Shown piece by piece: positions 2,096 to 63,373 of a stretch of 64,000 bases of DNA. A program made the translations under genes and the position numbers. The stretch is from the NCBI RefSeq assembly GCF_028641065.1, contig NC_073389.1:27838001-27902000 (forward strand). The letters run 5' to 3'. Positions within the stretch are counted from its first letter, which is position 1. Every line of letters begins with the position of its first letter. This DNA comes from Leucoraja erinacea. Lineage: Eukaryota. A model generated the notes under the pieces. That model was not told the origin of the DNA and did no database searches. It saw nothing but the letters and a program-made list of their open reading frames with translations.

Positions 2096-2665
2096 AACTA
2101 GGGACAGAGTCCCCTGAATCCTCACCTCCCACCCTATCGCCTGTTGCATACAGCACATGATCTCTGCCATTTTCTCCACCTCCAATGGGATCCCACCACG
2201 AGCCACGTCCTTCCATCTCCACCCCATTCCACTTTCTGCAGACACCGTTCCCTCCGCAGCTCCCTGGTTAACTCGTCCCTTCCCTTCCAAACCACCCCCT
2301 CCCCAGGTACTTTCCCCTGCAACCGCAGGAGATGCCTCGCCTATCCCTATACCTCCACCCTCGACTCCATCCAGGGACCCCGACAGTCCTTTCAGGTGAG
2401 GCATAGGTTCACTTGCCCCTCCTCCAACCTCATCTACTGTATCCATTGTGGGCTCCAGCTCTCCTGGGCATCGGTGCCGACTCTGATTTGTTCTGAACCT
2501 TTTCATACCTCTAGTTTCCCTCCCCCCTGACTCTGCCTGAAGAAGGGTCTTCACCCAAAACATCACCAATTCCTTTTCTCCAGAGATTCTGTCTGACCCG
2601 CTGAGTTACTCGAGCGCTTTGTGTTTACCTTTGGTATAAACCAGCATCTGTAATTCCTTCCTACG
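2096..2665 (+). mobile_element. Penelope-like element (Neptune-type) fragment: Cys-rich linker and start of GIY-YIG domain, then 3' terminal repeat
   Basis: ORF 2144-2530 contains RSLRSSLV...PGTFPCNRRRC...I.GP..SFQVRHRFTCPSSNLIYCIHC, characteristic of the PLE RT-endonuclease linker. It is followed in the same orientation by the hammerhead-bearing terminal repeat (2537-2665). Confidence 0.78.
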
Positions 2666-2879
2666 CAACCACAAATATGTTTGGTCTCGGGACCCTAAAC
2701 AGGAGAATGCTAGAACCATGTGATGTATGGATATCTGCAGCAACTTTCCCTTGCATGTGTTTCCCTTTCATCGTTATGTTCCCTGCAGATTTCAATATCT
2801 GTGGGCTTCATGAAATCTATCAAAGTCTTCTTAATCATCTTCAGATTGCACCATCTTTATCATAAAGATGAGGCTACAA

Positions 2880-3210
2880 CAACTGAACAATTCCACTGTC
2901 GCCGGGTGTACGGTGCAGACCATGTGGACTGGTTGCATCATGGCCAGGTCCGGAAACTCAAACGCCCAGGAATGACAGTGGTGGACACTGCCTGGTCCAT
3001 CAGGGGTACAGACATCCCCACCTCTGAAGGGATCTACCGGAGGTGCTGCCTCAAAGGTAGCCAGCATCATCAGAGACCCGTACCACCCTGGCCACACTCT
3101 CCTTTCACTCCTACCAATGGGAAGAAGGCACAAGAGTCTGAAAACCGTGTCCACCAGGTTCAAGAACAGCTTCTTCCCAGCAACCGCGAGGCTCTTGAAC
3201 ACTATCAGCA
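2880..3210 (+). mobile_element. Rex1/Babar 3' fragment (others at ~10560-10840 -, 18760-19140 +, 33155-33355 -, 46945-47085 -, 47370-47585 -, 53940-54400 -)
   Basis: Remnants of VVDTA.SI.GTD.PT.EGIY.R.CLK.A.SII.DP.HPGH....LP.G.RYRSLK..T.RFKNSFFP. Confidence 0.72.
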
Positions 3211-4102
3211 TAGGAAAGGTTTAGAAGTGATATTGGGCAAATGGGACTAGCTTGGATGGGGCATCGTGGTCGGCAAGTGTCTTTGGTTACACAGTGGACT
3301 TCAATTTTGCTCTATTCAGTTCTGCTTCCACTTTTCCTACGCACCAGGGGCAAATTCCCATAAACCAATTAACCTACAAACCCGCACGTCTTTGCTATGT
3401 GGGAGGAAACCGGGGCATCCTGAGGCAGTGGCTCTACCAGCTGCGTCACTGTGCCGTCCCACTTGATACTGGGTTGACTCCCATTACAAATCACATCCAA
3501 ATATTCTCATTTCATTTGACCGAACTGTACCAGTTCTCAGCTGATGAACTTGGCAGCCACACAGCACGATTCAACCTTCTCTCTCACAACAACAGGAAAG
3601 CATGAAAGAATCTCTAAATGCCGCCCACTTCATGGAAACCATGTCTCCTCCGCCCTACCCAGTGCAGAGGCCTCATGTTCAAAGTATGATGGGCACTTCA
3701 GTTAGCTGTCAATGCAGATAACTGGCAAGAGGTTTAGTACCAACAACTATTTCCTTCATTGAAATTTGGGCGACTAATCCACTTTCCCACAATCTAGTTT
3801 CTCACAAATCCAACAAACCCGTGTCTACAAAGCAACCAAATGGATTAACATGTGACAACGTTGTTCATAAGCAGACAGACGTTTAGTGGGTGTCAAGCGG
3901 TGGATTAATTTTAGCTTCAATCCAAAGCAAAAGCAATCAAATAAAACCAAAAAGTCAAATATATGCACAATTTAGCGTCTCCGCATTAAATGTGGGTTTG
4001 CGTTTGTTTTTGAGCATAGCTGAGATTGATTCAGCGAACTTTAGCTTTGTATCACTCTCTTCTTTTGGAAGTGACCCATTTCTAGTAATCAGATCACAGA
4101 TA

Positions 4103-5233
4103 TTAGTTTTGTTTAGAGAAACAGCGTAGAAACATGCCCTTCGGCCCACCGAGTCCATACCGGCCAATCAATCACCCAGTCACACTAGCTCTGTTATCTC
4201 TCTTTCTCATCCGCTCCTTACTCATTGGGGGCAATTTACAGAGGGCCGTTTAATCTACAAACCCGCACTTCTTTGGGATGTGGGAGGAAGCTGGAGCACC
4301 TGGAGAAACCCACTTGACCACAGGGATAACATGTAACCTCCACACACTGACAGCACCCGAGGGCACGATCATAGAAACATAGAAAATAGGTGCAGGAGTA
4401 GGCCATTCGGCCCTTCGAGCCTGCACCGCCATTCAATATGATCATGACTGATCATCCAACTCGGTATCCTGTGCCTGCCTTCTCTCCATACCCCCTGATT
4501 CCTTTAGCCACAAGGGCCACATCTAACTCCTTCTTAAATATACCCAACGAACTGGCCTCAATTACCTTCTGTGGCAAAGAATTCCACAGATTCACCACTC
4601 TCTGTGTGAAAAATGTTTTTCTCATCTTGGTCCTAATTCCCCCTTAACTGTGACCCCTTGTTCTGAACTTCCCCAACATCGGGAACAATCTTCCTGCATC
4701 TAGCCTGTCCAACCCCTTAAGAATTTTGTAAGTTTCAATAAGATCCCCCCTCAATCTTCTAAATTCCATCGAGTACAAGCCGAGTCGATCCAGTCTTTCT
4801 TCATATGAAAGTCCTGCCATCCAGGAATCAGTCTGGTGAACCTTCTCTGTACTCCCTCTATGGGGAACCCTCTCTGTACTCCCTCCATGATCGAATCCTG
4901 CATGGTGGTGCAGTTGCTGCCTCTCAGTGCCAGAGACCCACGTTCGATCCTGACGATGGGGGCTGTCTCTGCGGAGTTGTACGTTCTCCCCATGAGCACA
5001 TGGGTTTACTCCGGGTGCTCCAGTTCCCTTAATGGTCCAAAGACGTGCAGGTTTGTAGGTGAATTAAATTTGGTAAAAATAGTGAATTGTCCCTAGTGTG
5101 TAGAATAGCACTTGTGTACGGGGATCGCTGGTCAGCAAAGACTCAATGGGCTGAAGTTCCTGTTTCTGTGCTGAACTAAACCCAAGGCTCTGGCACTGTG
5201 AGGCAGCAGATCTAGCAGTTGTGTCACTGTGCC
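4103..5233 (-). mobile_element. HE1/V-SINE-like SINE split at its B-box by a CR1 fragment and a second (+) SINE (~4899-5180)
   Basis: Body at 4103-4370 and head at 5180-5233 rejoin as ...GATCGAACCC.GG.CTCTGGC... Confidence 0.72.
4370..4887 (-). mobile_element. Young CR1 3' fragment inserted in a SINE B-box
   Basis: IEGVQRRFTRLIPG remnant and a 3' UTR ending (TTTCTATG)2. GATC flanks both ends. Confidence 0.82.
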
Positions 5234-6379: not shown

Positions 6380-7197
6380 ATCAGTCAGAGTATTGAGTAT
6401 AGAATGTGTAGAAAGGAACTGCAGGTGCTGGTATACACCAAAGATAGACATAAAATGCTGGAGTAACTCAGCAGGTCAGGCAGCATCTCTGGAGAAAAAG
6501 GATAGGTGAAGTTTTGGGCCAGCGTCTGAAGAAGGATCCTGACCCAAAATGTAATCCGTCCTTTTTCTCCGAAGATGCTGCTGGACCCGCTGAATTACTC
6601 CAGCACTGTGTGTTTATATTGAGTATATGTTCGGATGTCACGCTGCGGTTATGTAAGGCGTTGGTGAGGCCACATTTAGAGTGTCGTGTTCAATTTTGTT
6701 CACCATGTTATAGGAAAGATGGTGTCAAGCTGGAAAGGGCGCAGAGAAGATTTGCGAGAATGTTGCCAAGACCCGAGGGCGTGAGGTATAGGGAGAGATT
6801 GAGCAAGCAAGGACTATTCCTTGGAGCGCAGGACAATGAGGGGCGATCTAATAAAGGTGTATACAATTATGAGAGGAATAGATCAGATAGGCTCACAGAG
6901 TCTCGTGCCCAGAGTAAGGGAAATCAAGAAGCAAAGGACATGGGTTTAAAGTGAGGGGGGAAAGATTAAATAGGAACATGAGGGTTAACTGTTTTTACAC
7001 AAAGGTGTATGGAACTGCCGGAGGTAGTTGAGGCAGGTACTATTGCAACGTTTAAGAAACATTTGGATTAAAAAGGATAGGACAGATTTAGAGGGGTATA
7101 TGGGCCAGACGCAGGCAGGTGTGATTAATGTAGAAGGGGCATGTTGGTTGGTGTGGGCAAGTTGGGCCAAATGGCTTGTTTCCGCGCTGTATGACTA
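6380..7197 (+). mobile_element. CR1 3' fragment interrupted by a PLE fold-back
   Basis: DVTLRLCKALVRPHLECRVQFCSPCYRKD..KLERAQRRFARMLP in ORF 6514-6954; CR1 3' UTR. Confidence 0.82.
6402..6616. mobile_element. PLE terminal-repeat fold-back unit with 11-bp TSD
   Basis: Inverted arms GCTGGAGTAACTCAGCAGGTCAGGCAGCATCT / AGATGCTGCTGGACCCGCTGAATTACTCCAGC. TSD TATTGAGTATA at 6391-6401 and 6617-6627. Confidence 0.8.
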
Positions 7198-11410: not shown

Positions 11411-11981
11411 TTACTTTAAAGCAAATAATCCTCTTTTATCTTATGTCGAAAATACCATAGAGATACTCAGTTCATCTTATCTTCATAGGCTGTGTTTATT
11501 TTTTAATTATTAAAGGAATGTTTTATGGAATGTCTTAGGCTGCTGAATTAATGTGCATTAGGTAATGCAAAAAATGTGTTGCAATTAATGTGCAGTTGAC
11601 TTACACAGTGATCCATCATGATGGTAATTTTAAGTTTATGTAACACAACTGGCAAATATTCTCCCTGGCCCTGGATGTGTTTTTTTAAAAAAAAGATGAA
11701 GAATTTCTTTAGTCAGAGGCTGGTGAATCTGTGGAATTCATGCTGTGGAGGCCAAGTCAATGGATGTTTTTAAGGTGGAGATTGACAGATTCTGGATTAG
11801 TAAGTGTGCCGGGGGGTTATGGGGAGAAGGCAGGAGAATGGGGTGAGTGGAAAAGGAGGATCTGCCAAGTAGACTTGATGTGTAAGCAGGAACAGCAGAT
11901 GCTGGTTTAAACTAAAGATAGACACAAAAAGCTGGATGAACTCAGCGGGACAGGCAGCATCTCTGGAGGAAGGAATGGGGT

Positions 11982-12017
11982 GACGTTTCGGATCGAGAGT
12001 CCACGACCCTTCTTCAG
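11982..12017 (-). ncRNA. Minimal type I hammerhead ribozyme-like core in a PLE terminal repeat
   Basis: Minus strand reads CUGAAGA-A-GGGUCG-UGGACUCU-CGAUCC-GAAAC-GUC: intact catalytic boxes, 6-bp stem II, palindromic ACGU in place of stem III, and a GUC cleavage triplet. Stem I pairing is poor. Confidence 0.55.
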
Positions 12018-12468
12018 ATGGACTGACGCGCCGAACCCCGACAGTGAGCATCCTCCTCCTCAGCAGCCCGGACCTTCTGATCTGCCGCCTCCCGCTGCCG
12101 GAGTCTGCAGCTCCTGAGTCCGCAGGCTGAGCCGGGCAGAGTCATGGCGTCCCATCAAGCTTCTGCCCCTAGAATTTATGAACTTGTCAGCTCATGCCAA
12201 AGATAGCATCCCCCGCATAAGATGGATACCGGGCTGTACGCTGCTGAAGAGAAGTACAACACATCTTCAGATTACGAATGGTGGGTGCCAAAGATAGCAT
12301 TAAGGTCTAACGATTGAAGAGAAGACTTACGAGGGTGTTGCCAGGACTTGAGGGAAAGGCTGTGCAGGCTCGGACTTTATTCCTTGGAGGGCAGAATAAA
12401 ATCATGATGGGAATTGATAGGGCAAATGTAGAGTCTTCTTACCCAGGGTAGAGGAATCAAAAACCAGA

Positions 12469-14095: not shown

Positions 14096-14505
14096 GGTGG
14101 CACAATGGCACAGCTGGTAGAGCTGCCACCTCACAGCGCCAATGACCCGGGTTCGATCTTGACCTCCGACGCTGCCGGTGTGGAGTTTGCACGTTGTCCC
14201 TGTCACCGTGTGAGTTTCCTCCGGGGGCTCCAGTTTCCACCCACATCCCAAAGACGTGCGGGTTTTTAGGTTAATTGGCTGTCTATAAATTGCTGCGAAC
14301 TTTGTGTCTTTTTTTTTGTAAACCAGCATCTGCAGTTCCTTGCTTCTACTTTTCACTGTACCTTGGTACATGTGCCAATAATAAACCTAACATATCGAGT
14401 GTGGAGAGTGGACAGGAAAGTGGGATAACATAGATCTAGTGCGAACATGTGATTGACGGTCAACATGGAATCGGTGGGCCGAAGGGCCTGTTTCCATGCT
14501 GTGTC
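14096..14505 (+). mobile_element. HE1/V-SINE-like SINE (interrupted ~14295-14395)
   Basis: A box TGGCACAGCTGG, B box GGTTCGATC, core and tail. Confidence 0.72.
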
Positions 14506-15384: not shown

Positions 15385-16518
15385 TTCTTCCATGCAGAGT
15401 ATAGTTTTGCAGGATGGAAGATTTGCAGAATTAATTTGGCCACTCGCCTCCACATCCCCCCCCACCACCATTTAGTACGATCATGGCTAATCTATTTGCA
15501 ACCTAATTTCCACATTCCCATCTACCCTTGTAATCTCACTGCCCTTTGCTTATCTCAAATCTATCACTGCCTTAAAAATAGTCAAAGGCACTAAGGTAGA
15601 ACGGTGTGGATGGGAAAGGCTCACAGGGATATGTTTAGTTTAGTTTATTGTCGCATGAGGAATATGGATTCAGTGCATCATGCTCGACCAGCTCAATTGT
15701 AATGTATTGTCTTTCCACTGACTGGTTAGCACGCAACAAAAGCTTTTCACTGTACCTCGGTACACGTGACAATAAACTAAACTAAACAAAACATTGTGGC
15801 TGAAGGGCCTGTTCTTGTGCTGTATTGTTTCATGTTCTATTAACAGTGAATATTAAAAGAGTATTTACTGTTAAACATGTTTGCAGACTTATTTTTGTGC
15901 CGATCTATGTTTAGGAAAACCTTAAAGGGAAATGGGTCGAATGTGGGCAAATGGGATTCGCTTAGATGGGGCATCTTGGTCGGCGTGGACAAGTTGGGCC
16001 TGTTTCCGTGCTGTATCTCTAAACAATACTAAGTTAAAATAACACAAATAAAGATTGCTAGAGTAACTCTGTGGATCAGGAAGCATCCCTGGAGAAAATG
16101 ATGGGCGACGCTTCGGGTCTGGACACTTCTTCAGACTACAAAAGGAATACTTGTGGTCTCGCCAGTGTTCGATATAACTGAAGCATTGCCTTCGTACTTT
16201 TGTATTCACCTCCTCAAGCCATAAACATAACATGTTGCCTTTCCTAATTAGTGCTGTAATGGCTTTTCTAATTACCTGCAAACGAGCCTTTTGCAAATCG
16301 TGTACTATGAAACACAGATCTCGCAAATCTCAGCCGTTTCTCATCATTTAGCTCATTATGCTTCTCACCCAGAGTAGGGAAATCACGAAACAGAGGTCAC
16401 ATGTTTAAGGTGAGAGGGGAAAAATATAAAAGGAAAGTGAGAGGCAACCTCTTCACTCAGAGGATGGCAGGTAAATGGAATGAGCTGCCAGAGGAGGTAG
16501 TTGAGGGAAGTATTATAA

Positions 16519-17467: not shown

Positions 17468-17768
17468 GGGCAGCACAGTGGCGCAGCAGCTAGAACCGCT
17501 GCCTCACAGCGCCAGAGATCCAGTTGACGATCCTGACCTTGAGTGCTGTCTGTGTGGAGTTTGTATGTTCTCCCTGTGACCACGTGGGTCTCCTCCAGGT
17601 GCTCCAGTTTCCCTCCCACATCACAAAGATGTGTGGATTTGTGGGTTAATTGGCTGTCTGGAAATTGCCCCTCGTGTGTAGGGAGTGAATGAGATAATGG
17701 GATAACATAGAACTAGTGTGAATGATGGTTTGTGTGGATTCAGTGGGCATGTATCTCTGAAACTAAAA
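17468..17768 (+). mobile_element. HE1/V-SINE-like SINE
   Basis: GGGCAGCACAGTGGCGCAGC head, core and tail. Confidence 0.75.
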
Positions 17769-19865: not shown

Positions 19866-20492
19866 ATTATCCATGTTCTCCAGGGATGTTGCCTGACCCC
19901 CTGAGTTACTCCAGCACTTTGTGTCTTTTTTGGTATGAACCAGCTTCTGGGGTTCCTTGTGACTTCACTTTTGTTTATATCCATCTACATCTTCCACCAA
20001 TATTCCTCCCTCCGTCTTTGCAATTCACTCCTTCTTCTCTCGTTTGCCCTTTTATCTCCTTTTCACCTCCAGCCTTTGTCACTCGCTCCACCCATCTGCC
20101 AATCAACCCCCCCCCCTCCCCCTCCCCAGTAACCATTTATCACATGCCAGGGTTTGTCCCACCCCCACTGTGATTACTCTTCCAGCTTTGTTTTCCAATC
20201 CCCCTCATCCACCCTACGATCAGTCTGAAGAAGTGCTGACCTGAACCGTCACCTATCCACGTTATCCAGAGGTGCTACCAGGCCCGATGAGTCAAAGGCT
20301 TTGGTGGACCGAGCCAAAAGGTCACCAAGTCTACGTTTGGTCTTGCCAATGTACAGGAAGCCATATCGGGATCACCGCTCAGTCTGCCACGTCGCACTCG
20401 GTCCACCAAGATTTGCTAGATCTCCCGGTTGCCAACCCTTTCAACTCCCCTTCATATTCACACGCTGAACTTCCTGTCCCGAGCCTCCTCCA
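19866..20492 (+). mobile_element. PLE remnants: terminal repeats plus GIY-YIG fragment
   Basis: DLPVANPFNSPS.SH..L.V..LL at 20391-20490 (PLE endonuclease region). Pyrimidine-rich 3' region and degenerate hammerhead at 20225-20250. Confidence 0.6.
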
Positions 20493-20967
20493 AAACCTCG
20501 GGCTGAAAGGTCGGTGAGGGAGTGGGAAGAGGAGTCAGTCAGCAACCGGGAGATCCAGCAGGCCTCGGCAAACCACGGCTCGTGACACTATTGAATGTAA
20601 AGACACTGAGAACGTGTGAAGGGTTTTTGCACAGTTTTTGTCGTATATATTTTTTATTCTGCACAAAGTACATTTTTGGAAAATATACCAGTCCGACAGA
20701 AAACAACTAGGCCACAGATATAGAGATACAAACAACTATAGAAACACCAGGACAGGCAGCATCTCTGGAGAAAATGGATGGGTGACTTTCCAGGTCGAGA
20801 CCCTTCTTCAGATTGATTCAAAAATACTCTGCCTCACCATTATGCCCACATATACCATCATTTCCACCCAGTATTTAAATTCTAGAGTTTATAATCTATT
20901 TTTCAATTTTTTAAAAAAAATCCTTTTTACTGCTATTATGGATCTTAATGAAACTTTCCAAAGAAAG

Positions 20968-21734: not shown

Positions 21735-22050
21735 TGGTGAGGCTGGTGAAGCTGCTGCCTCACAGCGCCAGAGACCCAGGTTCGATCGTGACCTCGGGTG
21801 CTGTCTGTGTGTGGAGTTTGCACGTTCTCTCTGTGACCGTGTGGGTTTGCTCCGGGTGCTACGGTTTCCTCCCACATCACGAAGATGCGCGGGTTTGTAG
21901 GTTAATTGACCTTCTGTAAATTGCCCCCTAGTGTGCAGGGTGCGGATGAGGAAGTGGGATAACTTAGTACTAATGTGAACGGGTGATTTATGGTCGACGT
22001 GGATTTGGTGGGTTGTAGGGCCTGTTGCCATGTTGTATCTCTAAACAAAA
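21735..22050 (+). mobile_element. HE1/V-SINE-like SINE
   Basis: GCTGCCTCACAGCGCCAGAGACCCAGGTTCGATC, core and tail. Confidence 0.78.
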
Positions 22051-25687: not shown

Positions 25688-25794
25688 TACAGGTGCACAA
25701 CCTTTTATCCGAAAGCCTTGGGACCCGACACCTTTCGTAATTCAGAATTTGTCGGTCTTCGGAATGGAATTTTTTTTGCGTAGATTTTAATGGC

Positions 25795-25859
25795 TGGCTC
25801 AGTGGTAGAGTGCTCGGCTCATATCCGCAAGGTCGCGAGTTTGCGCCTTGATCCCGGCA
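25795..25859 (+). pseudogene. tRNA-Met(CAT)-like segment inside the TIR element
   Basis: D arm GCTC-AGTGGTA-GAGT; anticodon arm CGG-CTCATAT-CCG (CAT at 25820-22); variable region AAGGTC; T arm CGAG-TTTGCGC-CTTG; 3' strand TCCCGGCA. The 5' acceptor strand is missing and the T-loop is degenerate. Confidence 0.55.
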
Positions 25860-25864
25860 GAAGA

Positions 25865-30200: not shown

Positions 30201-30224
30201 ATGGCTGATCATTATTTGTTGTTG

Positions 30225-41625: not shown

Positions 41626-42074
41626 CCCCCCAGATATGTAGCATTTACGAAGCTTTTAGAGAGGCACTTGGATATGTAGGGGATGCAGGCATATGAATCA
41701 GGTGAAGGCAGAGGAGTGTAGGAAGAAACTGCAGATGCTGGTTTAACCCGAAGATAGATAGACACAAAAAGCTGGAGTAATCCAGTGGGTCAGACAGCAT
41801 CTCTGGAGAAAAGGAATAGGTGACGGAATGGGTCAAGACCCTTCTTCAGACTGAGAGTCAGGGGAAAGGGAAACGAGGGGATTGGTTTATCTTGGCTTCA
41901 TGTTGGGCATGGATATTGTGGGCTGAAGGGCCTGTTCCTGTGCTGTACTGTTCTATGGACTATCGATCTATCTATGGCGTTCACTTCAACTCGGGATTGA
42001 GTGGTGCCATCTGCTTCATGATGTCCTGGTGCTGTGTTAGCCATTCGTCATGATGCAGTTTCACTCATAAGTAA

Positions 42075-44194: not shown

Positions 44195-44392
44195 TGCAGG
44201 AAGGAACTGCAGACGCTAGTTTAAACCGAAGATAGACATAAAATGCTGGACTGACAGCTGAACAGGCAGCATCTCTGGAGAGAAGGAATGGGTGACGCTT
44301 CGGTTAGAGTAGGGTCTCAACCCGAAAAGTCACCCATTCCCTCTCTCCAGAGATGCTGCCTGTCCTGCTGAGTTACTCCAGAATTTTGTGTC
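44195..44392. mobile_element. PLE terminal-repeat fold-back unit with 13-bp TSD, inserted in a SINE head
   Basis: Arms CAGGCAGCATCTCTGGAGAGAAGGAATGGGTGAC / GTCACCCATTCCCTCTCTCCAGAGATGCTGCCTG. TSD TGTGGTAGAACTG at 44182-94 and 44393-405. Confidence 0.82.
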
Positions 44393-44688
44393 TGTGGTAG
44401 AACTGCTGCCTCTCAGCGCTGGAGACCTAGGTTCGATCCTGACCTCAGGTGCTAACTGTGTGGAGTTTGCATGTTCTCGCTGTGACCTTGTGGGTTTCCT
44501 CCGGGTGCTCCAGTTTCCTCCCTATCCCACAGACGTGTGAGTTTGTAGATTAATTGGCCTCTGTAAATTGTTCCTAGCATGTAGGGAGTGGATGAGAAAA
44601 TGGGATAACAGAGTTAGTGTGAATGGGTGATCGATGGTTAGAGTGGGCTGAAGTGCCTGTTTCCATGCTGTATCTTTCGATCAATCAA
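44393..44688 (+). mobile_element. HE1/V-SINE-like SINE
   Basis: GGTTCGATCC B box, core and tail. Confidence 0.78.
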
Positions 44689-46055: not shown

Positions 46056-48339
46056 ACAACAGATATGTAAACATAGGCACAAAATGCTGGAGTAACTCAG
46101 TGGGTCAGGCAGCATCTTTGGAGAAAACGGATAGGATGACTATTCTTTCAAAGGGCCCCAGTCTATCCACATTCTCCAGCGATACTGCCTGACCCACTGA
46201 GTTACTCCAGTACTTTGTATCTATCTTTGGTATAAACCAACATCTGCAGTTCCTTTTTATTACAAGCTGTCCCTGAATCGGGATGTTTCACGTTTCAGGC
46301 TCCTCTACCTTCTTCCCAATGGCAGGGGTGAGATGAGAGTGTGGCCCCCGTAACCCTCTTTATGAGGCAGCAACTCCTCAATTGTGATTTCTGGACTACT
46401 TTATATGAACAATATTGACAGTGTGGGGATCATATAGTCAAGCTGCTGCTCTTGTTCAGAGCACTGGATGATCTACACTTTCTCACGATCGGGTTAGGAA
46501 TGATAAATAACACAAATGGCTTTTGCCGTGGTAATCGGAATTAGTCAAATGCTGGTTGCATGAAATCCAGTCAGCTGGTTGCTATGGTGAGCAACAACTG
46601 GCAGCAGCTGGGAAGACGGTCAAGAGAGCTTATAGTTGTCATATACACCGGCCGGATATGAAGCAGAGCAATGACATCCTTACTTGCCGCAGCTTCACAA
46701 GCACATTAGATATAACAAACAGCAACGATAAATGTGCAATAAATGATCAGTTTTTCAAAGTAAACTAGATCATGAAAGTGCAAGAATCAAAGTAGAGTAA
46801 CCATTGTAGTGCAAAGTTATTTGTGTTGAGTTTGGATTGTGTAGGGTTGTGTAAGGTTGATTCAGATTCAGATTCAATTTAATTGTCATTGTCAGTGTAC
46901 AGTACAGAGACAACGAAATGCATTTTCTTGAATGCATTTTGATGCTGTTCTTGAACCTGATGGTCATGGTTCTCGGACTCCTGTACCTTCTTCCTCTTGG
47001 TAGCAGCGAGCAGAGAGGGTGGTCATGGTGGTGTGAGTCCTTGCTATCAGCTGCCATCTTGAGGCAGCATTTGCTGCAGATCCTTTCATAAGTTCACGTT
47101 ATAGGAGCAGAATTAGGCCATTCGGCCCATCCAGTCTACTCCGCCTTGCAATCATGGCTGATCTATCATTTCCTCTCAAGCCCATTCTCCTGCCTTCTCC
47201 CCATAACTCCCGCATTCTAGTCCTTGGAAATAAATGCTAGCATTGCATTTGCCTTCCTTACTACCGATTCGACTTGCAAATTAACTTATTGGGAATCCTG
47301 CACCTGCATTTTCCAAGTCCCTTTGCACCTCCGATTTCTGAATTCTCTCCCCATTTGGAAAATAGTCTTTGATGGTACCTGTGATGGACCGGGCAATGGT
47401 GAGCACTTTCTGCAACCTCCTTCGTTGCTGAACTTGGTGATGCAACCAGCCAGTATGCTCCCTGCCCGTACCGTTGCAGAAGTTTGAAAGACATGCCGAA
47501 TCTCCTCAAACCTCTGAGGAAGTAGGGGCATTGGTGAGCGTTCTTCATGATCGCATCAATGTGCTTGGCCCAGGACAGATCATTGTAGATGCGTCTCTAT
47601 AAGGATCACTCCTCAGCCTCCTGCGCGCCAAGGAATAAAGTCATAGCCTGCTCAACATCTCTATATAGCTTCGACCTTCAAATCCTGGAAACATCCTGGT
47701 AAATCTCCTCTGCACCCATACCACCTGTAACATGATGACCAAAACTGAACACAATACTAAATATACAATTGTACAACTGTAACATGACTTCCCAACTTCT
47801 ATACTTGAGTCCTGACAACACCTTCGTAAACTAGTGATTCATGATTCCATAACTCTTGCTGCAGTGTGGTGTACAAACCCTCTCTTTTTCAGTGAGAATA
47901 TTGAACGTGTGGTGTGAAATTTACCCTTCCTACCTTGGGTTGTAGCTTTGTTGATTGTGCCAGTAATTCCTGACTTGCTGTGATCTTTTCCCTCTTGGTA
48001 CTTGAACATCGACTACAAAAGAACAAGACCCAGTGGCAGCTAAAGGTTAATGTAATATTAAAGCTGTCATTTTGCAGGTTTAATAAAAGTCCACGACTTG
48101 TGCTGAAATAACTCATCCCCAAATTGAAATTTTGCAATCAAAAAATACACCTGCCAACTCCCCAGCCACTTGGTTCGTGTAGGAAATATTGTGGCAATAA
48201 GCAGATAATGAAGAACCATTGGAAAATCCTTCAGTAGCATTTCTTTTCTTTTGCAATGCAATGACTGTTCTCTCTTAGTTGGTGGTAACAGAAATAGCAT
48301 CACTGTTCACTCATTCTGTTGAAGGTGGGTGTATTTCAA

Positions 48340-48765: not shown

Positions 48766-50292
48766 TGCTCTATTCATTGAATTTGAAAGCTTATCATCAA
48801 TAAAGATCAATGCTTTTCACTAAACCTTTATCAACAGAAATAATAACTCAATTCCTAGAAAAATAAACTTACGTTATGGATTAAGATCATTAAAATCATA
48901 CATCATATAAAATCTGAATTGATTCATTAAAAATCTAAGATTTCAAGTTCAATGTGATTTATTTTAATTGCAATCAATAAACACATCTGTATTTTTTGTA
49001 GTTTGATTAATAACACTGTTTTCTAAGGAAAATGTTACCAGATGGTGCACATGAATATATGTGAGCATTTGTTTTAGCTACACTCTAGGTACAGTAAGTA
49101 TTATCTAACTTTCGGTCCTTGCCTGAAGAAATGTTTTGTCTAAAGAAAATTTGAAATCAAAGGTGGTTAAAGTTCGAATTGTATTCAAAGCATTTATTCA
49201 GAGGTCAAATCACAAAGTGTTGGAGGAAGGAAGCGGGTCAGGCAGCATCTGTGGAGGCAATGGACCATTGACGTTGCGGGTCAGGACCATTTTTCGAATC
49301 TGAGTCGTGATTAGCAATGTTGCCTGTTCATTCCCTCCACAGATGCTGCCTGCCCCACTGAATTGATAAGTTCAGAAATCATAGGAGCAGAGTTAGGCCA
49401 TTTGGCCCATCGCGTCTCCGCCATTCAATCATGGCTGATCCATCTTTCCCTCTCAACTCCATTGCCTCGTCTTCTCCCTCTAACTTTTTGCCGCCCTTAC
49501 TAATCAAGAACCAGTCAATCTCTGCTTTAAAAATACCCAAGGACTTGGCCTCCACAGCCATCTGTGGCAAAGATTTCCACATATTTACACACTCTGGCTA
49601 AAGAAATTCCTCCTCATCTCCTTTCTAAAACTTCCTCCAGCACTTTGAGTTTTGCTCAAGATTTCTAGCATCTGCAGTCCTTCCCATCTCCATTTATTTT
49701 GCGGAATGTCTTCTTGAAAACACGACGCATTGAACTGCAAAATCCATTTCCAAGCTGTGTTAATACTGTGAAGGTATCATAGCAACATCTCATCTCAAAA
49801 GTGTGATGGCCAATTTTACCACCGCTCTGTGCATTCACTGCATAATTGCGCGGAGCCAAAGCACAATTTATTCAGAGTGCCTGGGCGCTTAATTGCAGTT
49901 TATAAATACCAATAAAGTTGGCAAAGTTTCCAACAATTTCTACTTTTATTTCTGATTTCCAGCAACTTCAATTTGTTCGAGAAACAAGGAACTACAGATG
50001 GTGGATTAGAAAAAAATACCCACAAAGTGCTGGAAGAACTTTACAGGTTAGGCAGCATCTCTGGAGAACATGGATAAGTGACGTTTTGGGTCAGGGACCT
50101 TCTTCAGACTGAAGGAGATGGGTCTGAAGCCGGATAGCCAAAACATTGACTATCTGTATTCTCCAGAGATGTTGCCTGTCCTATTGAGTTACTCCCCGAC
50201 TTGGTGTCTTTACCTTCAGTTTGTCAGTTTGCTTAACATAGAACTGGCCCTACGGCCCACTATGTCTGTGCCGAACATGATGCCAAAACTAA

Positions 50293-51455: not shown

Positions 51456-51539
51456 AGTTTAGGGAGGTCTAAAAAGGTTTGGGTTTTGTTTATTATTGTC
51501 TCTCCCTCCGGCCCTCCGGAGAAAACAATCTAACTTTGT

Positions 51540-51625
51540 CTGAAGAAGGGTCTCGATCCAAAACGTCACCCATTCCTTCTCTCCAGAGCTGCTGCCTGTC
51601 CCGCTGAGTTACTCCAGCATTTTGT
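51540..51625 (+). mobile_element. Solo PLE terminal-repeat fragment starting at the hammerhead core, 14-bp TSD
   Basis: ATCTAACTTTGTCT at 51528-41 and 51626-39. The insert begins CTGAAGAAGGGTCTCGATCCAAAACGTCACC. Confidence 0.78.
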
Positions 51626-51890
51626 ATCTAACTTTGTCTAACCTCTCCCTGTAACCCCGGAAGACCCTGTATTTGAATTGGTTTAAAGGATTAGTTTTTG
51701 ATGTGTAGTTGCAGGTGGAAGTCAAGGACATGAATCGCTGTTCCATAATCTAACTAGAGGGGTACAGGCAACTGCATTGAACATCAGCCTATGAAATAAT
51801 TCTTTGTTTTTCTCCTTTTCTTTGGACTTTCTGTTACACGTTCAGTTGAACCTTCCTAAAAGTAATGGGGATATTGGGGCAGAGCGATTG

Positions 51891-52195: not shown

Positions 52196-52602
52196 AAATT
52201 ATGGTGATAGCACAAAATGCTGCAATAACTCAGTGGGTCAAGGTCTCTGGAGAAAAGTGACGTTTTGGGGAGAGACCTTTCTTCAGACTGAGAGTCAGGG
52301 GAGAGGAAAACTAGAGGTGTGAATAGACAGAAGAAACAACCATAAAAATGATGGTGGGCAGAATGTGTGGGACGTATCTTTCACTTCCACTTCATCTCCG
52401 AATGTTTCTGTCTCTGAAGATCCAGTCATGTCCTCCATTGTTGACCTTGAGATGATGATTGGCATGAAGGACTTGGGTGTGTGATGTGGGTTGAATGACA
52501 CAATGTTTGTCAGCTCTCTCCTTTGAAATGGGGCCTTATCTCAACGTTATTTCAGACAAACGTCTGAAGTCACATCTGTGCATGATGCACCTCCAGTAAA
52601 TG

Positions 52603-53340: not shown

Positions 53341-53342
53341 CC

Positions 53343-53908: not shown

Positions 53909-54931
53909 AAGGCTAGGAACCAAGAGGGCCATAAAAATAAGTCAAACTCAAGTACAATAGGTAGAGCAGAGGGGAAGATACAGAGTGCAGAATATAGTTC
54001 TCAGCATTGTAGCGCGCCACTTCCAGAGACAAAGTCCAATGTTCGCAATATGGTAGAGGTGAATCGGATAGTACCCTAGCTCATGGAAGGACTGTTCAGA
54101 TGCCTGATGACAGAAGGACAGCAGGTGTTCTTGAGTCTGGTGGTGCGCGTTTTCAAGCTTCTGTACCATCTGCTTGATGGGAGCGGGGAGAAGAAGATAT
54201 GACCAGTGTGGGACAAGCCTTGGATTATGGTGGCTGCTTTTCTGAGGCAGTGTGAAGTGTAGATGGAGTCAGTGGTGGGGGGAGCCTGGTCTGTGTGATG
54301 GACTGGACTAAAATCTCTGCAATTCCTTGCCGTCCTGGACAGTACTGTTCCCAAACCAAGCCGTCATACAATCCGACTAAATGCTTTCTACTGCGCATCA
54401 CTGCTACAAAGACAAATTTCACTCCAGGCACTATTAAGTTGTTCTAATTTGTTATGGTCCAATGCATTGAATTGAGATCTGCATCATGTATATTATACAG
54501 AGCTTGGACAGGTTTACAGCACTTTGATCTGCAGTGGCATTTCCAACACTCCTTGTTTTCTTTACCCTTCTGCCTCAGCAACCAGAAGATTATTGGTTTA
54601 CAGCCCAATCTTTAAATCAATTCTCAGTAAGTGTTGCATTATATTAGAGATGCAGAACTCCCTTTATCTAATCCATGGGATAACATAGAACCACTGTGAA
54701 CGGGCTATCGATGGTCAGCATAGACTCGGTGGGCTAAGGGTCTATTTCTATGCTGTATTTTATGATCAATCACTCAGTCATCTGGGGCGAACACTTAACA
54801 GGAACAAGCCGGCTATTTTACACCTTGGCACCCTGGACAAGGATAGCCGGCACTAACGTTTAAAACGAAAGACACAAAGTGCTGGAGTAACTCAGCGGGT
54901 CAAGCAGCATCTCTGGAGAACATGGATAGGT

Positions 54932-54959
54932 GACGTTTCGGGTCGGGATCCTTCCTCAG
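54932..54959 (-). ncRNA. Minimal hammerhead ribozyme-like core in a PLE terminal repeat
   Basis: Minus strand reads agu-CUGAGGA-A-GGAU-CCCG-ACCC-GAAAC-GUC-acc, with one stem II mismatch. Confidence 0.48.
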
Positions 54960-57520
54960 ACTCTATAAAAGGTTTGAGTGAGGGAGTGTTTAAATGGCAG
55001 CTGATTGCTGGCAAGATGTGTGAGAGTGGGTGAGAGTGTGTGTGTGAAAGAGTGGGTGAGTGTGTGGGAGAGAGAGAGCGCATGCGATTCCCGATCCAAA
55101 ACGTCACCTAGCCAGAGGAAGGAATGTGAGGGGAGGGGAGAATTAGGTGCGAGTCTAGGTGGGGCCCAAGGGAGGTGGGGGATGTTGTGAAGAAAGGGTG
55201 GGGAATGAATATTAATTAACGTTATTTATGTCATTTACTTTGGCACCTTATTCTGTCACATTAATATGTGGTCTAGATTAGATTAGATTAGATTCAATTC
55301 AGTTGTCATTTGGACCCCTTGAGGTCCAAACGAAATGACGTTTCTGCAGCCATACATTACAAACAAATAGACCCGAGACACAACATAATTTACATAAAAC
55401 ATCCATCACATTGCTGTGATGGAAGGCCAAAAAACCTATCTCTCCACTGTCTGAACTTCAGGTTAAGAGAACATCAGAGTAAAATGATTAGAGTCATGGA
55501 GGTGTACCTTGTCCATGGTTGACATACTGGGCTGTTCCCATTTGCCTGCATTTGGTCCATAACCCACTAAACCCTTCCTATCTCCATATCGGTCCAAATG
55601 TTTTTTAAACGTAATTGTATCTGCTTATCATAAGAGCAGATTTGGACCATTAGAGCCATCAAGTCTGTTCCACCATTAGATCGTGGCAGATCTATCTTTC
55701 CCTCACAACACCATTCTCCTGCTTTCTCCCTGTAACCTTACTAAACAAGAAATCAATCTCAGCTTTAAAAACATCCAATGAATTGGCCTCTACTGCCAAC
55801 TGTGTCAATGAATCCCACAGATTCACAATCCTTTAACTAAAGAAATTCCTCCTCCTCTCCATTCTCCATCCTTTTATTCTGAGGCTGTGCCCTCTAGTCC
55901 TGGACTCTTCCACTACTGAAAATATTATTTCCACATTCACTATCCATGACTTTCATTATTTGGTAGGTTTATGCTCTTCTGAAGCTCTGGTAGCTCATTC
56001 CAGATACAGAGTTCCCTCTGAATGAAAGAGTTGCTACTAGAGTTACCTCTCTTAAAACTCTCCCCTTAAGCCCGTGTCCTTCAGTTTTAGAATCCTCCAA
56101 ACTGGGGAAAAAGTATGTGAGCATCTTCCTTTTAATAGAGTTATTCAGCACAGAAATACGGCCATTCGGCCCAACTTGTCTATGCCAATCAAAATGCCTC
56201 ATAGTGTCACCTAAGCCCCAGCCTATGCAACTTCTCCCTGTAACTCAAAGCTGCAAGCCCAGGTAACATCCTGGTGAATCTTCTCTGCGCCTATTTCAAG
56301 ATGAGGGAGGAACAGAGAATATGAGCACAAGGACACAAAGTGCTGGAGTAACTCAGCGGGGCCAGGCAGCATCTCTGGGGGACATCTCGAGTCGGAACCC
56401 TTCTCCAGATCATCAACAACGATTTGTTCAGAGTGAGAATTTCCTAGCAATAGCCGAGAAGCTACTTTTTCTCAAACAGAACTGGAATGTAAATTTGAAT
56501 GTTAACTGTGTTAAGGCAGGAAGCTCGGCAGCTAATTGTTGAGTTGACTGCAGGCTAAATATTAATTAATTACTGTTTTAGAAGCAATAGGCACAAAATT
56601 AGATTTAGAACTGCAGACATTTGATTACATGGTGTACTGAGAATAGGTCGTTCACTATTTTGATTAACATATCATCAAAAACCATGTGTTGGATTAGATG
56701 GAATAGATGGGTAACGTGAATTGAAAGTAAACGTGGATTATTTTCCTGCTTGGTAAAATAAGGACAATTTCAATTCTTTTTATTACCCTCCAGGCATTAA
56801 TGCTTCAGAGATTGCAGATTGATCTATCAATCACATTTCTGCCTGAGTATTGTCATGGTGCTCTTTGTGACCAAGTACCTTACCTTAATAGTCACACAGC
56901 GCAGAAATACAATCCTTCGGCACAACTTGTCCATGCCAACCAAGATGTCCCAAATACATTTGTGCCATCTTCCTGCGTTTGGCCCATATCTCTTTCCTAT
57001 CCATGTTCCTGTCCAAAATGTCTTATACATGCTGTTGCAGTACCTGCCTCAACTACTTCCTCTGGCAGCTCGTTCCATGTACCCACCGCCCTCCGTGTGA
57101 AAAAGTTGCCCTTCAGGTTCATATTAAATCTTTCCCCGATCACCTTAAACCTATGTCCTCTGGTTCTTGATTCCCTACTCTGGAAGAAATTCTCAGTATT
57201 GGCTGGGCGATTAATTAATTCCCTAACCTTTGATTGTTTCTCATTGTTCTTTTTGCACGACCATTAATAATAGGTGACATTTCACATCAGGACGCTTGGT
57301 CAGACTGGTTTAGTTTTTTTTATTAACTTACTTTTTTCCTGGTGGCAATTTTATCTTTATTAGTTTATTTAATATTGTAACATTGCATTGCCATTAGAAT
57401 AAGGAGACAAAATTAAGAAACTTATTACAAGCTTCGATTCTACATTCAGGAGATTAATAGACACAGCAAACAGAAATTCCACACTCAAAAAATATTCCCA
57501 TCAACATTTAGCATGTTTAG

Positions 57521-57835: not shown

Positions 57836-58614
57836 TAAGTCAAAACGATCCTTTACACCAGTTGCTTATTCTTTGATGGATGCAAATTGCTGGAGTAACT
57901 CAGCGGGTCAGGCAGCATCACTGGAATACATAGATAGGTGATGTTTCAGGTTGGAAGAAGGGTCTCAACCTGAAATATCGCCTATCTATGTTCTCCAGAG
58001 ACGCTGCCGGATTCACGGAGTACTCCAGCACTTCATGACCTGGTGTGGAAAGCAGCATCTGCAGTTCTTTGTTTTTACTGCTGATTCTTTGAGCTTTATT
58101 GAACCTAAACGATTTGAATTGTTAGCTTGGGTCTAATTTGGGTATTATGTGAACAGCTGGAATTAATCCCCTGCTTTCTGTGACACAATGGACTGTATCC
58201 ATTTCCAGCAAAGTTTGATGTCTTGCAATCACATCAGCTTTACAAACTGGGATCCTGTCAACTATCAAACAATTCAACCAGTAAACAAATGTCTCCCTTG
58301 AAGGCTGTGTGTGTTTATTCAGTGAGTAGCTATCTGTACCGCACATGCCAGCCAGCCAGCCTTGTGTTCCGAGCTAACAACACCATGCTGGAGTAACTCA
58401 GCCGATCAGGCGGCATCTCTGGAGAACATGGACAGGTGATGTTTCAGGTCGGGATCTGTCTTCAAGCCAAGCTTGTGTTTTTGTGTTGTCCTTTGAGGCA
58501 GGAGTAAGGGTCAAGAGACAAGAGCGTGTACTTGTCTTATGTACCAACAATGATACAATGGCATTTGTACTTGCAGCAGCTTAACAGGCCTGTACACACA
58601 ATGCACATAGATAA

Positions 58615-58925: not shown

Positions 58926-59205
58926 TCGAGTCGCCATATTTTCCTACATTTGGCCCATGTCCCTTTAAATCTCTCCTATCCATGTATCTGTTCAGCGTCT
59001 TTTAATTATAGTAGCTGCCTCAACTACCTCCTCTACCCGCCACTCTCTCAGTGGAAAAAGTTGTTCCTCAGGTTCCTATTAAATATTTCCCCTCTCTCAC
59101 CTCTGGTACTTGAGCTTTCTTTCCTTTGTGATTCTGAAGAAACTAATGAAAACTTTGCTTTACCAGATTGTTGCTATCATTTACTGATACCTTTATCACA
59201 TTAAT

Positions 59206-60862
59206 GTGAGGAAAGGGAAACTAGTAGAGTAGCTATGGATACTATGAGGTTCAAAGTAAAAGAAGTACTGACACTTTTGAAAAATATAAAAGTGGATAAG
59301 TCTCCAGGTCCTGACAGGATATTCCCTAGGACATTGAGGGAAGTTAGTGTAGAAATAGCCGGGGCTATGACAGAAATATTTCAAATGTCATTAGAAACGG
59401 GAATAGTCCCCGAGGATTGGCGTACTGCGCATGTTGTTCCATTGTTTAAAAAGAGTTCTAAGAGTAAACCTAGCAATTATAGACCTGTTAGTTTGACTTC
59501 AGTGGTGGGCAAATTAATGGAAAAAGATACTTAGAGATAATATATATAAGCATCTGGATAAACAGGGTCTGATTAGGAACAGTCAACATGGATTTGTGCC
59601 TGGAAGGTCATGTTTGACTAATCTTCTTGAATTTTTTGAAGAGGTTACTAGGGAAATTGACGAGGGTAAAGCAGTGGATGTTGTCTATATGGACTTTAGT
59701 AAGGCCTTTGACAAGGTTCCTCATGGAAGGTTGGTTAAGAAGGTTCAACTGTTGGGTATAAATGCAGGAATAGCAAGATGGATTCAACAGTGGCTGAATG
59801 GGAGAAGCCAGAGGGTAATGGTGGATGGCTGTTTATCGGGTTGGGGGCAGGTGACTAGTGGGGTGCCTCAGGGATCTGTGTTGGGTCCTATGTTGTTTGT
59901 CATGTACATCAATGATCTGGATGAAGGTGTGGTAAATTGGATTAGTAAGTATGCAGATTATACCAATATAGGGGGTGTTGTGGATAATGAAGAGGATTTC
60001 CAAAGTCTACAGAGTGATTTAGGCCATTTGGAAAAATGGGCTGAAAGATGGCAGATGGAGTTTAATGCTGAGGTGCTACACCTTGGCAGGACAAATCAAA
60101 ATAGGACGTACATGGTAAATGGTAGGGAATTGAAGAATACAGTTGAACAGAGGGATCTGGGTATAACCGTGCATAGTTCCTTGAAGGTGGAATCTCATAT
60201 AGATAGGGTGGTAAAGAAAGCTTTTGGTATGCTAGCCTTTATAAATCAGAGCATTGAGTATAGAAGCTGGGATGTAATGTTAAAATTGTACAAGGCATTG
60301 GTGAGACCAAATCTGGAGTATGGTGTACAATTTTGGTCGCCCAATTATAGGAAGGATGTCAACAAAATAGAGAGAGTACAGAGGAGATTTACTAGAATGT
60401 TGCCTGGGTTTCAACAACTAAGTTACAGAGATAGGTTGAATAAGTTAGGTCTTTATTCTCTGGAGCGCAGAAGGTTAAGGGGGGACTTGATAGAGGTCTT
60501 TAAAATGATGAGAGGAATAGACAGAGTTGATGTGGACAAGCTTTTCCCTTTGAGAATAGGGAAGATTCAAACAAGAGGACATGACTTCAGAATTAAGGGA
60601 CAGAAGTTTAGGGGTAATATGAGGGGGAACTTCTTTACTCAGAGAGTGGTAGCGGTGTGGAATGAGCTTCCAGTGGAAGTGGTGGAGGCAGGTTCATTGG
60701 TATCATTTAAAAATAAATTGGATAGACATATGGATGAGAAGGGAATGGAGGGTTATGGTATGAGTGCAGGCAGGTGGGACTAAGGGAAAAAAAAGTTGTT
60801 CGGCACGGACTTGTAGGGCCGAGATGGCCTGTTTCCATGCTGTAATTGTTATATTATATATG
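59206..60862 (+). mobile_element. CR1 LINE, 5'-truncated, ORF2 RT region plus 3' UTR (young copy with frameshift and point lesions)
   Basis: KSPGPD and NYRPVSLTS (59235-59534), a frameshift, then GRSCLTNL, YMDFSKAFD, GVPQGSVLGP, SKYADY (YADD mutated), RDLG, LVRPNLEY.VQFWSP, ERVQRRFTR and RGNFFTQRVV..WN (59596-60783). CR1-type 3' UTR with a short repeat tail. Confidence 0.93.
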
Positions 60863-60997: not shown

Positions 60998-61267
60998 TGG
61001 GTGGCACATGGCGCAGTGGTAGAATTGCTGCCTCACAGCACCAGACCCAGGTGTGTACGTCCTCCCTGTGACCGTGTGGGTTTTCTCCGAGTGGTTTCTT
61101 CCCACATCCCAGAGACGTGCAGGTTTTTGTAGGTTAATTTGCAGGTTAATTGTCTGCTGTAAATTGTCCCTAGTGTGTAGGATAGAACTAGTGTATGGGG
61201 CGATCGCTAGTCGGCGCAGACTCAGTGGGCTGAACGGCCTGTTTCCGCGCTGTATCTCTAAACTAAC
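60998..61267 (+). mobile_element. HE1/V-SINE-like SINE (B-box region deleted)
   Basis: A box, core and tail. Confidence 0.75.
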
Positions 61268-62124
61268 AAAAATGAATATGTGAGGTTTCTTTGCATAACT
61301 GGGTCAAAGGTTGTCTACGACAAGCTCACCTTCGACCAGTTGATTTCTTGACACATGCGAACAATTTCATCTGCAAGAATAATTCATAAGCCTGAAATAG
61401 CAGCAGCGATCTTTGATGTTCAATCTAATTTGACTATCGGTAGACAATGAAATAAAGGGTGCAGTTAACTATTTGGACATTCGAGATGAGCTTCAAAGTG
61501 CTGGTGTGCATCACCAGATGAGAGAGAATGTTAAATGTGGGATGTTGTGTCAGGAATCGCTCCGTCTTTGGAGAAAAATATATCTTTTGATCCTTCAATG
61601 ATGCCAAACCTCAACACAGCACAGTAGGTGATGAATTTTCCCTGAGGCTGACAGCAGAGGTGGTCTGCTGGCTCTGGTTCATGTCCTCTCACTGCCCGGC
61701 TCAATTTATTGGGCAATTGGATGCCCTGAATCACTTGCCCAGAGTAAGGGATTCGAGAACCAGAGGGCATAGGTTTAAGGTAAAGGAGGAAAGATTTTAT
61801 CGGTATTTGAGGGGAAGCTTTTTCACATGAAAGGTGGTAGATGTATGGGACAAGCTGCCAGAGGAAGTAGTTGAGGCAGGGACTATAACAATGTTTAAGA
61901 AGCAATTAGACAGATACATGGATAGAACAGGTTTAGAGGGATATGGGTACAACGCAGGCAGGTGGGACTAGTGTAGATGGACCACATTGATCAGTGCGGG
62001 CAAGTTTCCACACTGTATGACTCTACTATAACTGCATGACATAGGTTTTGGTTTATTATTGTCACGTGAACCAATGTTTTGTATGTTTCCAATCAGATCA
62101 GATAATACCATATGTAGATTTGGA

Positions 62125-62418
62125 ACGGCGCAGTGGTAGAGTCGCTGCCTCACAGTGCAAGAGGCCCAGGTTCGATCCTGACCTTGGGTGCTGTCTGCAC
62201 GTTCTCCCTGTGAACATGTGGGTTTTCTCTGGGTGCTCTGGTTCCCTCCCACACAAGAAGTGCAGATTTGTTGGTTAATTGGCTTCTGTAAATTGCCCCT
62301 AGTGTGTAGGATGTGAAACTGGGACAACATAGAACCAGTGTACGGGTGATTGTTGGTCAGCACAGACAAGGTAGGCTGAAGCCCTGTTTACATGCTGTAT
62401 CCCTAAACTAAACTAAAA
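62125..62418 (+). mobile_element. HE1/V-SINE-like SINE
   Basis: A/B boxes, core and (TAAAC)n tail. Confidence 0.78.
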
Positions 62419-63373
62419 ATGCAATCAAGTCAAAATGTCGACAAACCAGCCACACTTTGTCTTGTCTCTCCTTTCTCCCAGCTTTATTTCCTTCAACCCC
62501 CCACCCCCCCCCTCCCCACACCCTGTCATTCCTGCTACTCTTCTACTCTTTGACCGTGTTCATCTCCAGACTTTGTCCTCCCATTTGCCAATCAAACCCA
62601 CACCCTCAGATGTATTCACTTATCACACGCCAGGCTTTGCCCTGTCCCTTCTCTCATCCAGCTTTCTCCCCTATCCCCACCACCACAATCAGCCTGAAGA
62701 AGGGTATCGATACAAAATGTCCTAACCATATACTCCACAGTTTTATGTTTTGTTTATTGTCAGGTACAGCGAAAAGCTTTTGTTGTTGCGTGCTATCCAA
62801 TCAGCGGAAAGACTATATATGATTATAATCGAGCCTCCACAGCGTACGGATACAGGATAAGGGGAATAGCGTTTCGTGCAAGATAAAGTCCAGTAAAGTT
62901 TGATTAAAGATAGTCGGAGGGTCTCCATTGAGGTAGATGGAAGGTCAGGACCGCTCGCTAGTTGGTGAGAGGATGGTTCAATTGCCTGATCGCCGCCCCA
63001 TTAGGTATGTGGGTATATGAATGCTAAATATATTGATCTAAATTTCTTAATTTGAAAGGGAAGGTGTTGATATCTCTGCTAATAGATTTATGCATTAATG
63101 GATCGATGTTCATGCTGTGGTTTTTAAAGCTTTTTAAAATGAAGAGTGCCAAGTGGTGTGCACAGAAACAGCTCTGTGGGCTGTTTCTCCTCGGGGTAAT
63201 GCAAAATTCCATCTCATCTTTATTTTCCATATGTTTTTCTCGCTTGTTTTCCAAGCCTGCTGTGTAGATCTTTAATCCAAGAACATTGTGTTGAGCGGTC
63301 TCTATAATGAGGTTCAATATGTCGCAAAACCATCTCGCGGAATTAAACATATTTACAAACACAGAACAGTTTT

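Follow-up and report, generated by a model that had tools for sequence, protein, structure and literature searches.

Minimal type I hammerhead ribozymes have been described in the terminal repeats (pLTRs) of metazoan Penelope-like elements (PLEs) of the Xena, Poseidon, and Neptune groups (Cervera and De la Pena 2014, PMC4209133), and cleavage of PLE hammerheads as dimers has been reported (Lunse, Weinberg and Breaker 2016, as summarized in PMC6765202). In PAc, a Poseidon PLE from Anolis carolinensis, the tail is defined by two internal sites at which reverse transcription begins, and both target strands are extended (Frangieh et al. 2024, PMC11167929); the PAc hammerhead is active only with protein, hammerhead mutants leave insertion unaffected, and the main template is unprocessed RNA. 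The role of the hammerhead in PLEs has been described as unclear (PMC8557442). A dispersed repeat with hammerhead-like motifs was analyzed here in a window of 64,000 nucleotides (nt) from the 2.19-Gb genome of the skate Leucoraja erinacea (NC_073389.1, positions 27,838,001 to 27,902,000), which lies within an IGSF3-like gene. With a probability of about 0.7, the short copies (stubs) of this repeat are PLE terminal repeats with a minimal hammerhead, made by reverse transcription that started internally in the uncut 5' part of the element RNA and followed by decay that looks neutral.

The window contained one repeat family of ~125 to 140 nt, represented by 42 to 44 fragments (44 with a first profile and 42 with a second), 24 of which spanned the hammerhead core, in agreement with the preliminary description, which had counted about 20 motifs. 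Affiliation with PLEs was indicated by a remnant of an open reading frame (ORF) at positions 2102 to 2455 on the plus strand, comprising the end of the reverse transcriptase (RT) thumb, a degenerate CX4CxxC Cys linker, and the first GIY motif, with the remaining endonuclease absent. The remnant was 74% identical over 96 amino acids (aa) to an ORF with RT, CX4CxxC, and GIY-YIG regions at another locus of the same genome (L012), which confirmed the earlier recognition of a Cys-linker/GIY-YIG remnant at 2.1 to 2.7 kb with a motif next to it on the same strand. The adjoining repeat copy (2527 to 2662, plus strand; core at 2537, with G12 changed to A) is joined to the remnant and retains an upstream pyrimidine tract. 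Among 20 loci picked for long open frames, the repeat directly followed the ORF, in the same orientation, in 18, and two same-strand copies 3.5 to 3.9 kb apart were found in 5, the second lying upstream; at locus L068, the end of an ORF is followed by a pLTR (2477 to 2601) and then by the next ORF. This order and the same-strand pairs reflect the partial-tandem layout of PLEs. Pfam searches with three long ORFs matched RVT_1 in all three (near or just above the cutoff) and GIY-YIG in two (below the cutoff).

Judged from sequence, the repeat is the ~125-nt terminal repeat of a Neptune-type PLE, and the earlier reading of it as a PLE terminal repeat is supported by its linkage to ORFs with RT, Cys-linker, and GIY-YIG regions. 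Only Neptune and Poseidon PLEs were found in vertebrates (bioRxiv 10.64898/2026.07.22.740005), and the assignment to Neptune was therefore made by exclusion, from the host range and from a Neptune/Nematis-type linker whose CX2-5CxxC form is common to Nematis. A young subfamily at loci L051 to L070 comprised many near-identical copies with open frames of 750 to 1,050 aa, including a head-to-head pair of long copies at L063. Adjoining a PLE at L029 (3636 to 5562) were open frames that resemble those of a DIRS element, with motifs of RT and RNase H-like type.

By its layout and core, the motif in the repeat is a PLE minimal hammerhead, that is, a putative ribozyme. Young elements had a 2-bp stem I (U-G/G-C), CUGAAGA, one extra A, a 4-bp stem II with a UUCG or CUCG loop, GAAA, CG, U, and then C or U at the cut site, with GUU at the cut site in the youngest subfamily. 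Aligned copies contained the extra base between positions 9 and 10.1, the G10.1-C11.1 pair, and a palindromic stem III, as expected from the minimal type I architecture with an ACGU palindrome for stem III that had been proposed. The core letters (CUGANGA, GAAA, and UH) were found both in young elements and across 30,719 motifs of the genome. Differences between subfamilies were one-sided and kept pairing (U-A to U-G in both stems). True compensatory change was not found; in the one double change tested, the double variant occurred 15 times, compared with 451 occurrences for one of its single changes, and a candidate compensatory family (L054:5930) proved to be only a rare variant. The canonical Rfam type I hammerhead, with a 6-bp stem I and a loop 1-loop 2 contact, was rejected as a description of the motif: stem I measured 0 to 3 bp in 22 of 22 descriptor matches, and an Rfam scan of the window at E values up to 1 returned nine matches, none of them a hammerhead.

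Within the window, all 11 core letters were intact in 3 of the 24 core-spanning fragments (12017 minus, 35383 plus, and 54959 minus), and G12 was changed to A in 12. A looser family word occurred 16 times, compared with 1.31 times in first-order Markov simulations, and a structure descriptor matched three times, barely over chance (simulated mean, 0.72; maximum, 3 in 100 runs); the case therefore rests on the family and not on the intact copies in the window. All 14 CUGA(A/G)GA sites listed in the preliminary description were present within 1 nt of their positions. The repeat it had reported is thus real, but its full pattern was overstated, CUGANGA...GAAACGUH being kept by only 3 of the 14 (the three fragments with an intact core); the site at 20811 on the minus strand, part of a stub at 20720 to 20819, matched only after a shift.

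Predicted folds did not favor the active shape. In every copy folded (L068:2482-2545 and the copies in the window), a pyrimidine stretch 5 to 20 nt behind the cut site paired with the purine-rich core, and this pairing may possibly be a conserved off-state. For a young copy, the active-like fold of the monomer was predicted at -4.5 kcal/mol and the minimum at -10.6 kcal/mol, a difference of ~6 kcal/mol; for the dimer, the values were -7.1 and -29.8 kcal/mol, a difference of ~23 kcal/mol. These predictions would fit the low or protein-dependent activity reported for PLE hammerheads (PMC4209133, PMC11167929). Three cores 42 nt apart in head-to-tail orientation at L112 (5021 to 5140), with G12 kept in one of the three, formed the sole natural core tandem seen, and a head-to-tail run of four 66-nt pLTR units was present at L030 (2580 to 2878).

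Exact genome-wide matches to one tight, near-consensus motif pattern numbered 30,719 (control pattern, 0), which substantiates the proposed spread of the motif through the genome. Twenty 10-kb stretches, at 20 positions on 18 contigs, contained 79 fragments covering 7,303 of 200,000 bases. If these stretches are representative, the family contributes ~3.7% of the genome, in about 0.9 million fragments. Fragments were denser in the 264-kb IGSF3 region, which contained 186. The existence of another hammerhead family, distinguished by U at position 7, was considered (1,310 matches) and rejected, as the 100 matches listed appeared to belong to the same family.

The ends of the copies were informative about their origin. 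Start positions relative to C3 were scored for 233 of 265 fragments examined, and 75 of the 233 started at -5 to 0 (~12 per nt), compared with 1.5 to 2.8 per nt at +3 to +26 and 0.25 to 0.6 per nt at -90 to -11. The start site sequence was TCAGTCT, in accord with the metazoan initiator consensus, YYANWYY. The upstream pyrimidine tract was absent from 99 of 141 core-bearing copies (including 30 loci chosen by motif pattern), and likeness among the copies had fallen to background by -6. The 3' ends clustered at ~+79 to +99 and ~+119 to +131, ~35 nt apart, with the second zone limited by the 135-nt length of the references. Thirty-five divergent inverted pairs were found among the 186 fragments of the IGSF3 region, and only one copy carried the tail in 25 of them.

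Two other explanations of the sharp start were weighed. The pileup would be an artifact of reverse transcription or integration if the enzyme stalled, or was cut off, at the upstream tract, which is very C rich and lies immediately before a start zone covering several bases; this is improbable, since starts concentrate at TCAGT itself and drop sharply inside the tract, and the transcription start and initiator of Penelope are located inside the pLTR (PMC2377424). Alternatively, the pyrimidine tract and CAG|T before the core could form a 3' splice site, with the short copies derived from spliced RNA. A pyrimidine tract followed by CAG preceded the core in 13 of 13 ORF-linked or tract-bearing references, GT occurred near the ORF stop in several subfamilies, and the 75-bp intron (PMC2377424) of Drosophila virilis Penelope ends at helix I (PMC4209133). 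Splicing was nonetheless judged an even poorer prospect than stalling, as most solo copies retain the A at -3 and the G at -2 that would be lost in spliced RNA and are without a common leader, and none of the 15 best-supported read joints (109 weaker ones lay beyond these) skipped from the ORF end to the AG.

Starts at the cut site were not in excess: only 2 of 233 fragments began at +27 to +29. Genome-wide, in the older subfamilies, the cut-site pattern matched 352 times out of 55,436, compared with 256 times for a control 3 nt upstream that is stricter, being longer and containing a CpG. The value of 352 is an upper figure, before correction for the filter of the pattern, and many of the first 30 of these matches were internal deletions, inverted-pair junctions, or tandem repeats. 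A further control, located 2 nt downstream of the cut site, gave 693 matches and was set aside; 1-nt deletions made up about half of the 100 matches listed. Given the concentration of starts just before the core, the two zones of 3' ends, and the lack of any excess at the cut site, the short copies probably represent complementary DNAs (cDNAs) derived from the front part of uncut element RNA.

After insertion, the motif appears to have decayed with its surroundings. G12, which lies in a CpG, was lost in 62 of 147 copies and the G of a flanking CpG outside the motif in 58 of 164 (P = 0.24); in the 20 stretches on other contigs, the corresponding counts were 22 of 58 and 21 of 72. The loss of G12 by CpG decay that had been suspected is thus supported, as decay at the background rate. 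Sense fragments in IGSF3 outnumbered antisense fragments 61 to 44 (P = 0.12), with 35 and 25, respectively, among core-spanning fragments and 9 and 4 among descriptor-passing ones (all P > 0.1). Because G12 decays at the CpG background rate and no strand bias was detected, inserted copies look neutral. A lack of excess conservation of the core over its flanks, which the preliminary description had named as evidence against its proposal, was largely what was found for inserted copies, G12 being lost as often as the flanking CpG G.

Several observations weigh against an origin of the stubs from uncut RNA followed by neutral decay. The start zone is spread over ~6 to 8 nt and is not a single base. 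A clear cap-derived extra G at -4 was not found (8 of 19 non-C cases, counted by eye). In four RNA runs, chosen by study or species label and mapped on the young pLTR-ORF junction, no piled-up read starts or ends were found there, although such ends may be lost from the libraries; reads at the junction came mostly from other copies, 70 to 94% of them continuing into unlike sequence. The internal RT start sites are borrowed by analogy from a Poseidon element, and the skate element appears to be of Neptune type. Finally, non-CpG core letters were changed less often than flanks (83/1,193, or 7.0%, versus 658/6,953, or 9.5%, the latter including subfamily differences; P = 0.005). Because of these differences in the flanks, the slightly better preservation of core letters most plausibly reflects constraint on source elements.

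If the stubs did arise from uncut RNA, the A of TCAGTCT, 3 nt ahead of the core, would be the first base of the element RNA. The RT would begin at two internal sites, in the manner measured for the anole PLE, and would copy only ~100 to 130 bases of the front end of the uncut RNA, without extension into the element body. The ribozyme, if active, would work only in the ribonucleoprotein (RNP) of the element itself and not in isolated intronic copies; its activity there could be protein assisted, could depend on a dimer of two pLTRs in one tandem transcript, or both. A broader proposal is put forward tentatively: that the stubs of the skate genome, roughly one million in number, are run-off cDNAs recording an RNA start 3 nt before the core, that stem I of the 5' hammerhead is held to no more than 2 to 3 bp, that cut RNA is almost never the template, and that within this clade the motif may serve mainly as a structural or late-acting RNP signal rather than in processing needed for insertion.

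The relation of the repeats to their host gene was also considered. Alignment of the IGSF3-like protein of L. erinacea to the window and 100 kb on each side placed its first residues (signal-peptide exon) 29.4 kb upstream of the window, its first Ig-domain exon at 23544 to 23921 on the plus strand (100% match, bounded by AG and GT), and the next exon at 66.6 kb, 2.6 kb beyond the window end. The rest of the window is therefore IGSF3 intron with the plus strand as sense, and the earlier placement of the motifs in IGSF3 introns holds. A tandem IGSF3/CD101-like paralogue lies on the same strand 71 to 97 kb upstream of the window (L031 to L033), with 56 to 67% identity in the first two Ig exons.

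Given this setting, one idea is that intact sense copies cleave the pre-mRNA of the host gene, which for IGSF3 would happen at 35410, and thereby influence its transcripts. The stub at 35375 to 35483 (plus strand; motif at 35383 to 35410) is the sole sense-strand stub in the window with all core letters, nine sense copies within the IGSF3 span pass the descriptor, the genome holds ~30,000 near-consensus motifs, and reads of the family were abundant in the four RNA runs. In this stub, however, stem I is 1 bp, G10.1-U11.1 is a wobble, and the predicted probability of stem II is ~0, with the core paired downstream instead. Active-like folds were unfavored even in a young copy, as monomer and as dimer; the sense copies closest to this stub that pass the descriptor lie at distances of 36 and 42 kb; sense copies were not depleted in any of the three comparisons; and a lone minimal hammerhead gave no detectable cleavage (PMC4209133). 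Host cleavage is thus very improbable, and from the sequence features listed, cleavage of IGSF3 pre-mRNA is unsupported and unlikely. The view that the dispersed copies function as self-cleaving motifs within host pre-mRNA was not supported, with sense copies undepleted and G12 decaying at the background rate. The copy suggested for tests of cleavage (motif at 11982 to 12017, in the stub at 11888 to 12026 on the minus strand) has all core letters and is a poor choice: it is antisense to IGSF3, has loop 2 enlarged by an 8-nt insertion, and has a 1-bp stem I. As regards IGSF3, the repeats are ordinary intronic transposon debris, likely without effect on the host gene.

The remaining stubs in the window were degraded to different extents. 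The third with all core letters (54857 to 54970, minus strand; motif at 54932 to 54959) has one stem II mismatch and is also antisense to IGSF3. Minus-strand stubs further comprised those at 16047 to 16139 (A15.1 changed to G), 33369 to 33498 (pyrimidine tract present, core broken), 36828 to 36959 (tail present, G12 lost), 41726 to 41861 (tail present, GAAA lost), and 52210 to 52299 (G12 changed to A, stem II broken). On the plus strand, the core was broken at 20214 to 20293, and G12 was changed to A at 51531 to 51638 and in a short, decayed stub at 62683 to 62740. Seven divergent inverted pairs were present, at 6415 to 6627 (plus-strand core at 6526 broken), 24036 to 24212 (without the 5' half of the core), 44203 to 44400, 46068 to 46254 (without the core), 49208 to 49364 (decayed), 49988 to 50213 (minus-strand core at 50107, G12 changed to A), and 57859 to 58068. 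Irrespective of which copy is sense, these pairs would give IGSF3 pre-mRNA hairpins of 60 to 100 bp and are possible substrates for editing or small-RNA production; some had weak microRNA-like Rfam scores. The microRNA-like Rfam matches in the window were rejected as microRNA candidates, being inverted repeats with scores below the gathering threshold.

Other repeats were found nearby. Fragments of a long interspersed element (LINE) with RT and zf-RVT matches at 24928 to 28658 on the minus strand, which we take to be L1/Tx1-like, were broken up by a GC-rich repeat and a long hairpin (26130 to 26243). CR1/L2-like LINE fragments with RVT_1 matches occurred at 59205 to 60783 (plus strand) and 29114 to 30208 (minus strand), with open frames of 421 and 364 aa. 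A second abundant short repeat, resembling a tRNA-derived short interspersed element (SINE), was present at 14129 to 14280, 17528 to 17633, 21760 to 21911, and other positions (families D3, D5, D14, and D17); it is similar to HE1, a SINE known from sharks and rays.

A hammerhead in the pLTR is itself a known PLE feature (PMC4209133), of which the skate family would be a further member. A literature search on Penelope hammerheads, solo pLTRs, and Leucoraja, with most subscription papers outside its scope, found no skate report; cartilaginous fishes were not mentioned in the available portion of PMC4209133, and the available portion of PMC12602865 contained nothing on pLTRs. Chondrichthyan examples may already be listed by Lunse, Weinberg and Breaker (2016) or in the supplements of PMC4209133. 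The family is useful material in its own right: it accounts for ~3.7% of the sampled DNA, its young copies have long open frames, its near-consensus motifs number in the tens of thousands, and the start and stop points of reverse transcription can be read from the ends of its copies. It offers a Neptune-type system suited to testing the role of the PLE hammerhead.

Compared with the minimal hammerheads of PLEs described in PMC4209133, the skate motif is alike in its CUGANGA/GAAA core, the extra base between 9 and 10.1, the G10.1-C11.1 pair, the palindromic 15.2-16.2 stem, and its site in the pLTR, as well as in occurring mainly as single dispersed copies with some close opposite-strand pairs. 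Skate stem I is 2 bp, as in D. virilis (4 to 5 bp in Schistosoma families), and stem II is 4 to 5 bp; the youngest skate subfamily differs by GUU at the cut site. The 30,719 skate motifs, counted with one tight pattern, exceed the ~4,000 of coelacanth and ~9,000 of Xenopus, which were obtained by a different method. Non-LTR retrozymes (bioRxiv 10.64898/2026.07.22.740005) carry type I hammerheads from PLE pLTRs, and one chondrichthyan was among the species sampled. Retrozymes are tandem units, each with a complete hammerhead, whereas only 2 directly adjacent same-strand pairs were seen among the 186 skate fragments; with copies solo or in inverted pairs, identity as a tandem non-LTR retrozyme was ruled out. 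PAc and the skate element share the tandem pLTR-ORF layout, a hammerhead in the pLTR, two 3' end sites with a 30- to 40-nt tail, and the lack of RNA-seq ends at the cut site. They differ in that the skate element has the Neptune/Nematis Cys linker and its first ATG is ~165 nt after the core (L068), whereas that of PAc is inside stem II. The skate element resembles Neptune EN+ PLEs, as described by Craig et al. (2021, PMC8557442), in its single ORF with RT, CX2-5CxxC linker, and C-terminal GIY-YIG and in its partial tandems, inverted 5'-truncated copies, and tail at one end only.

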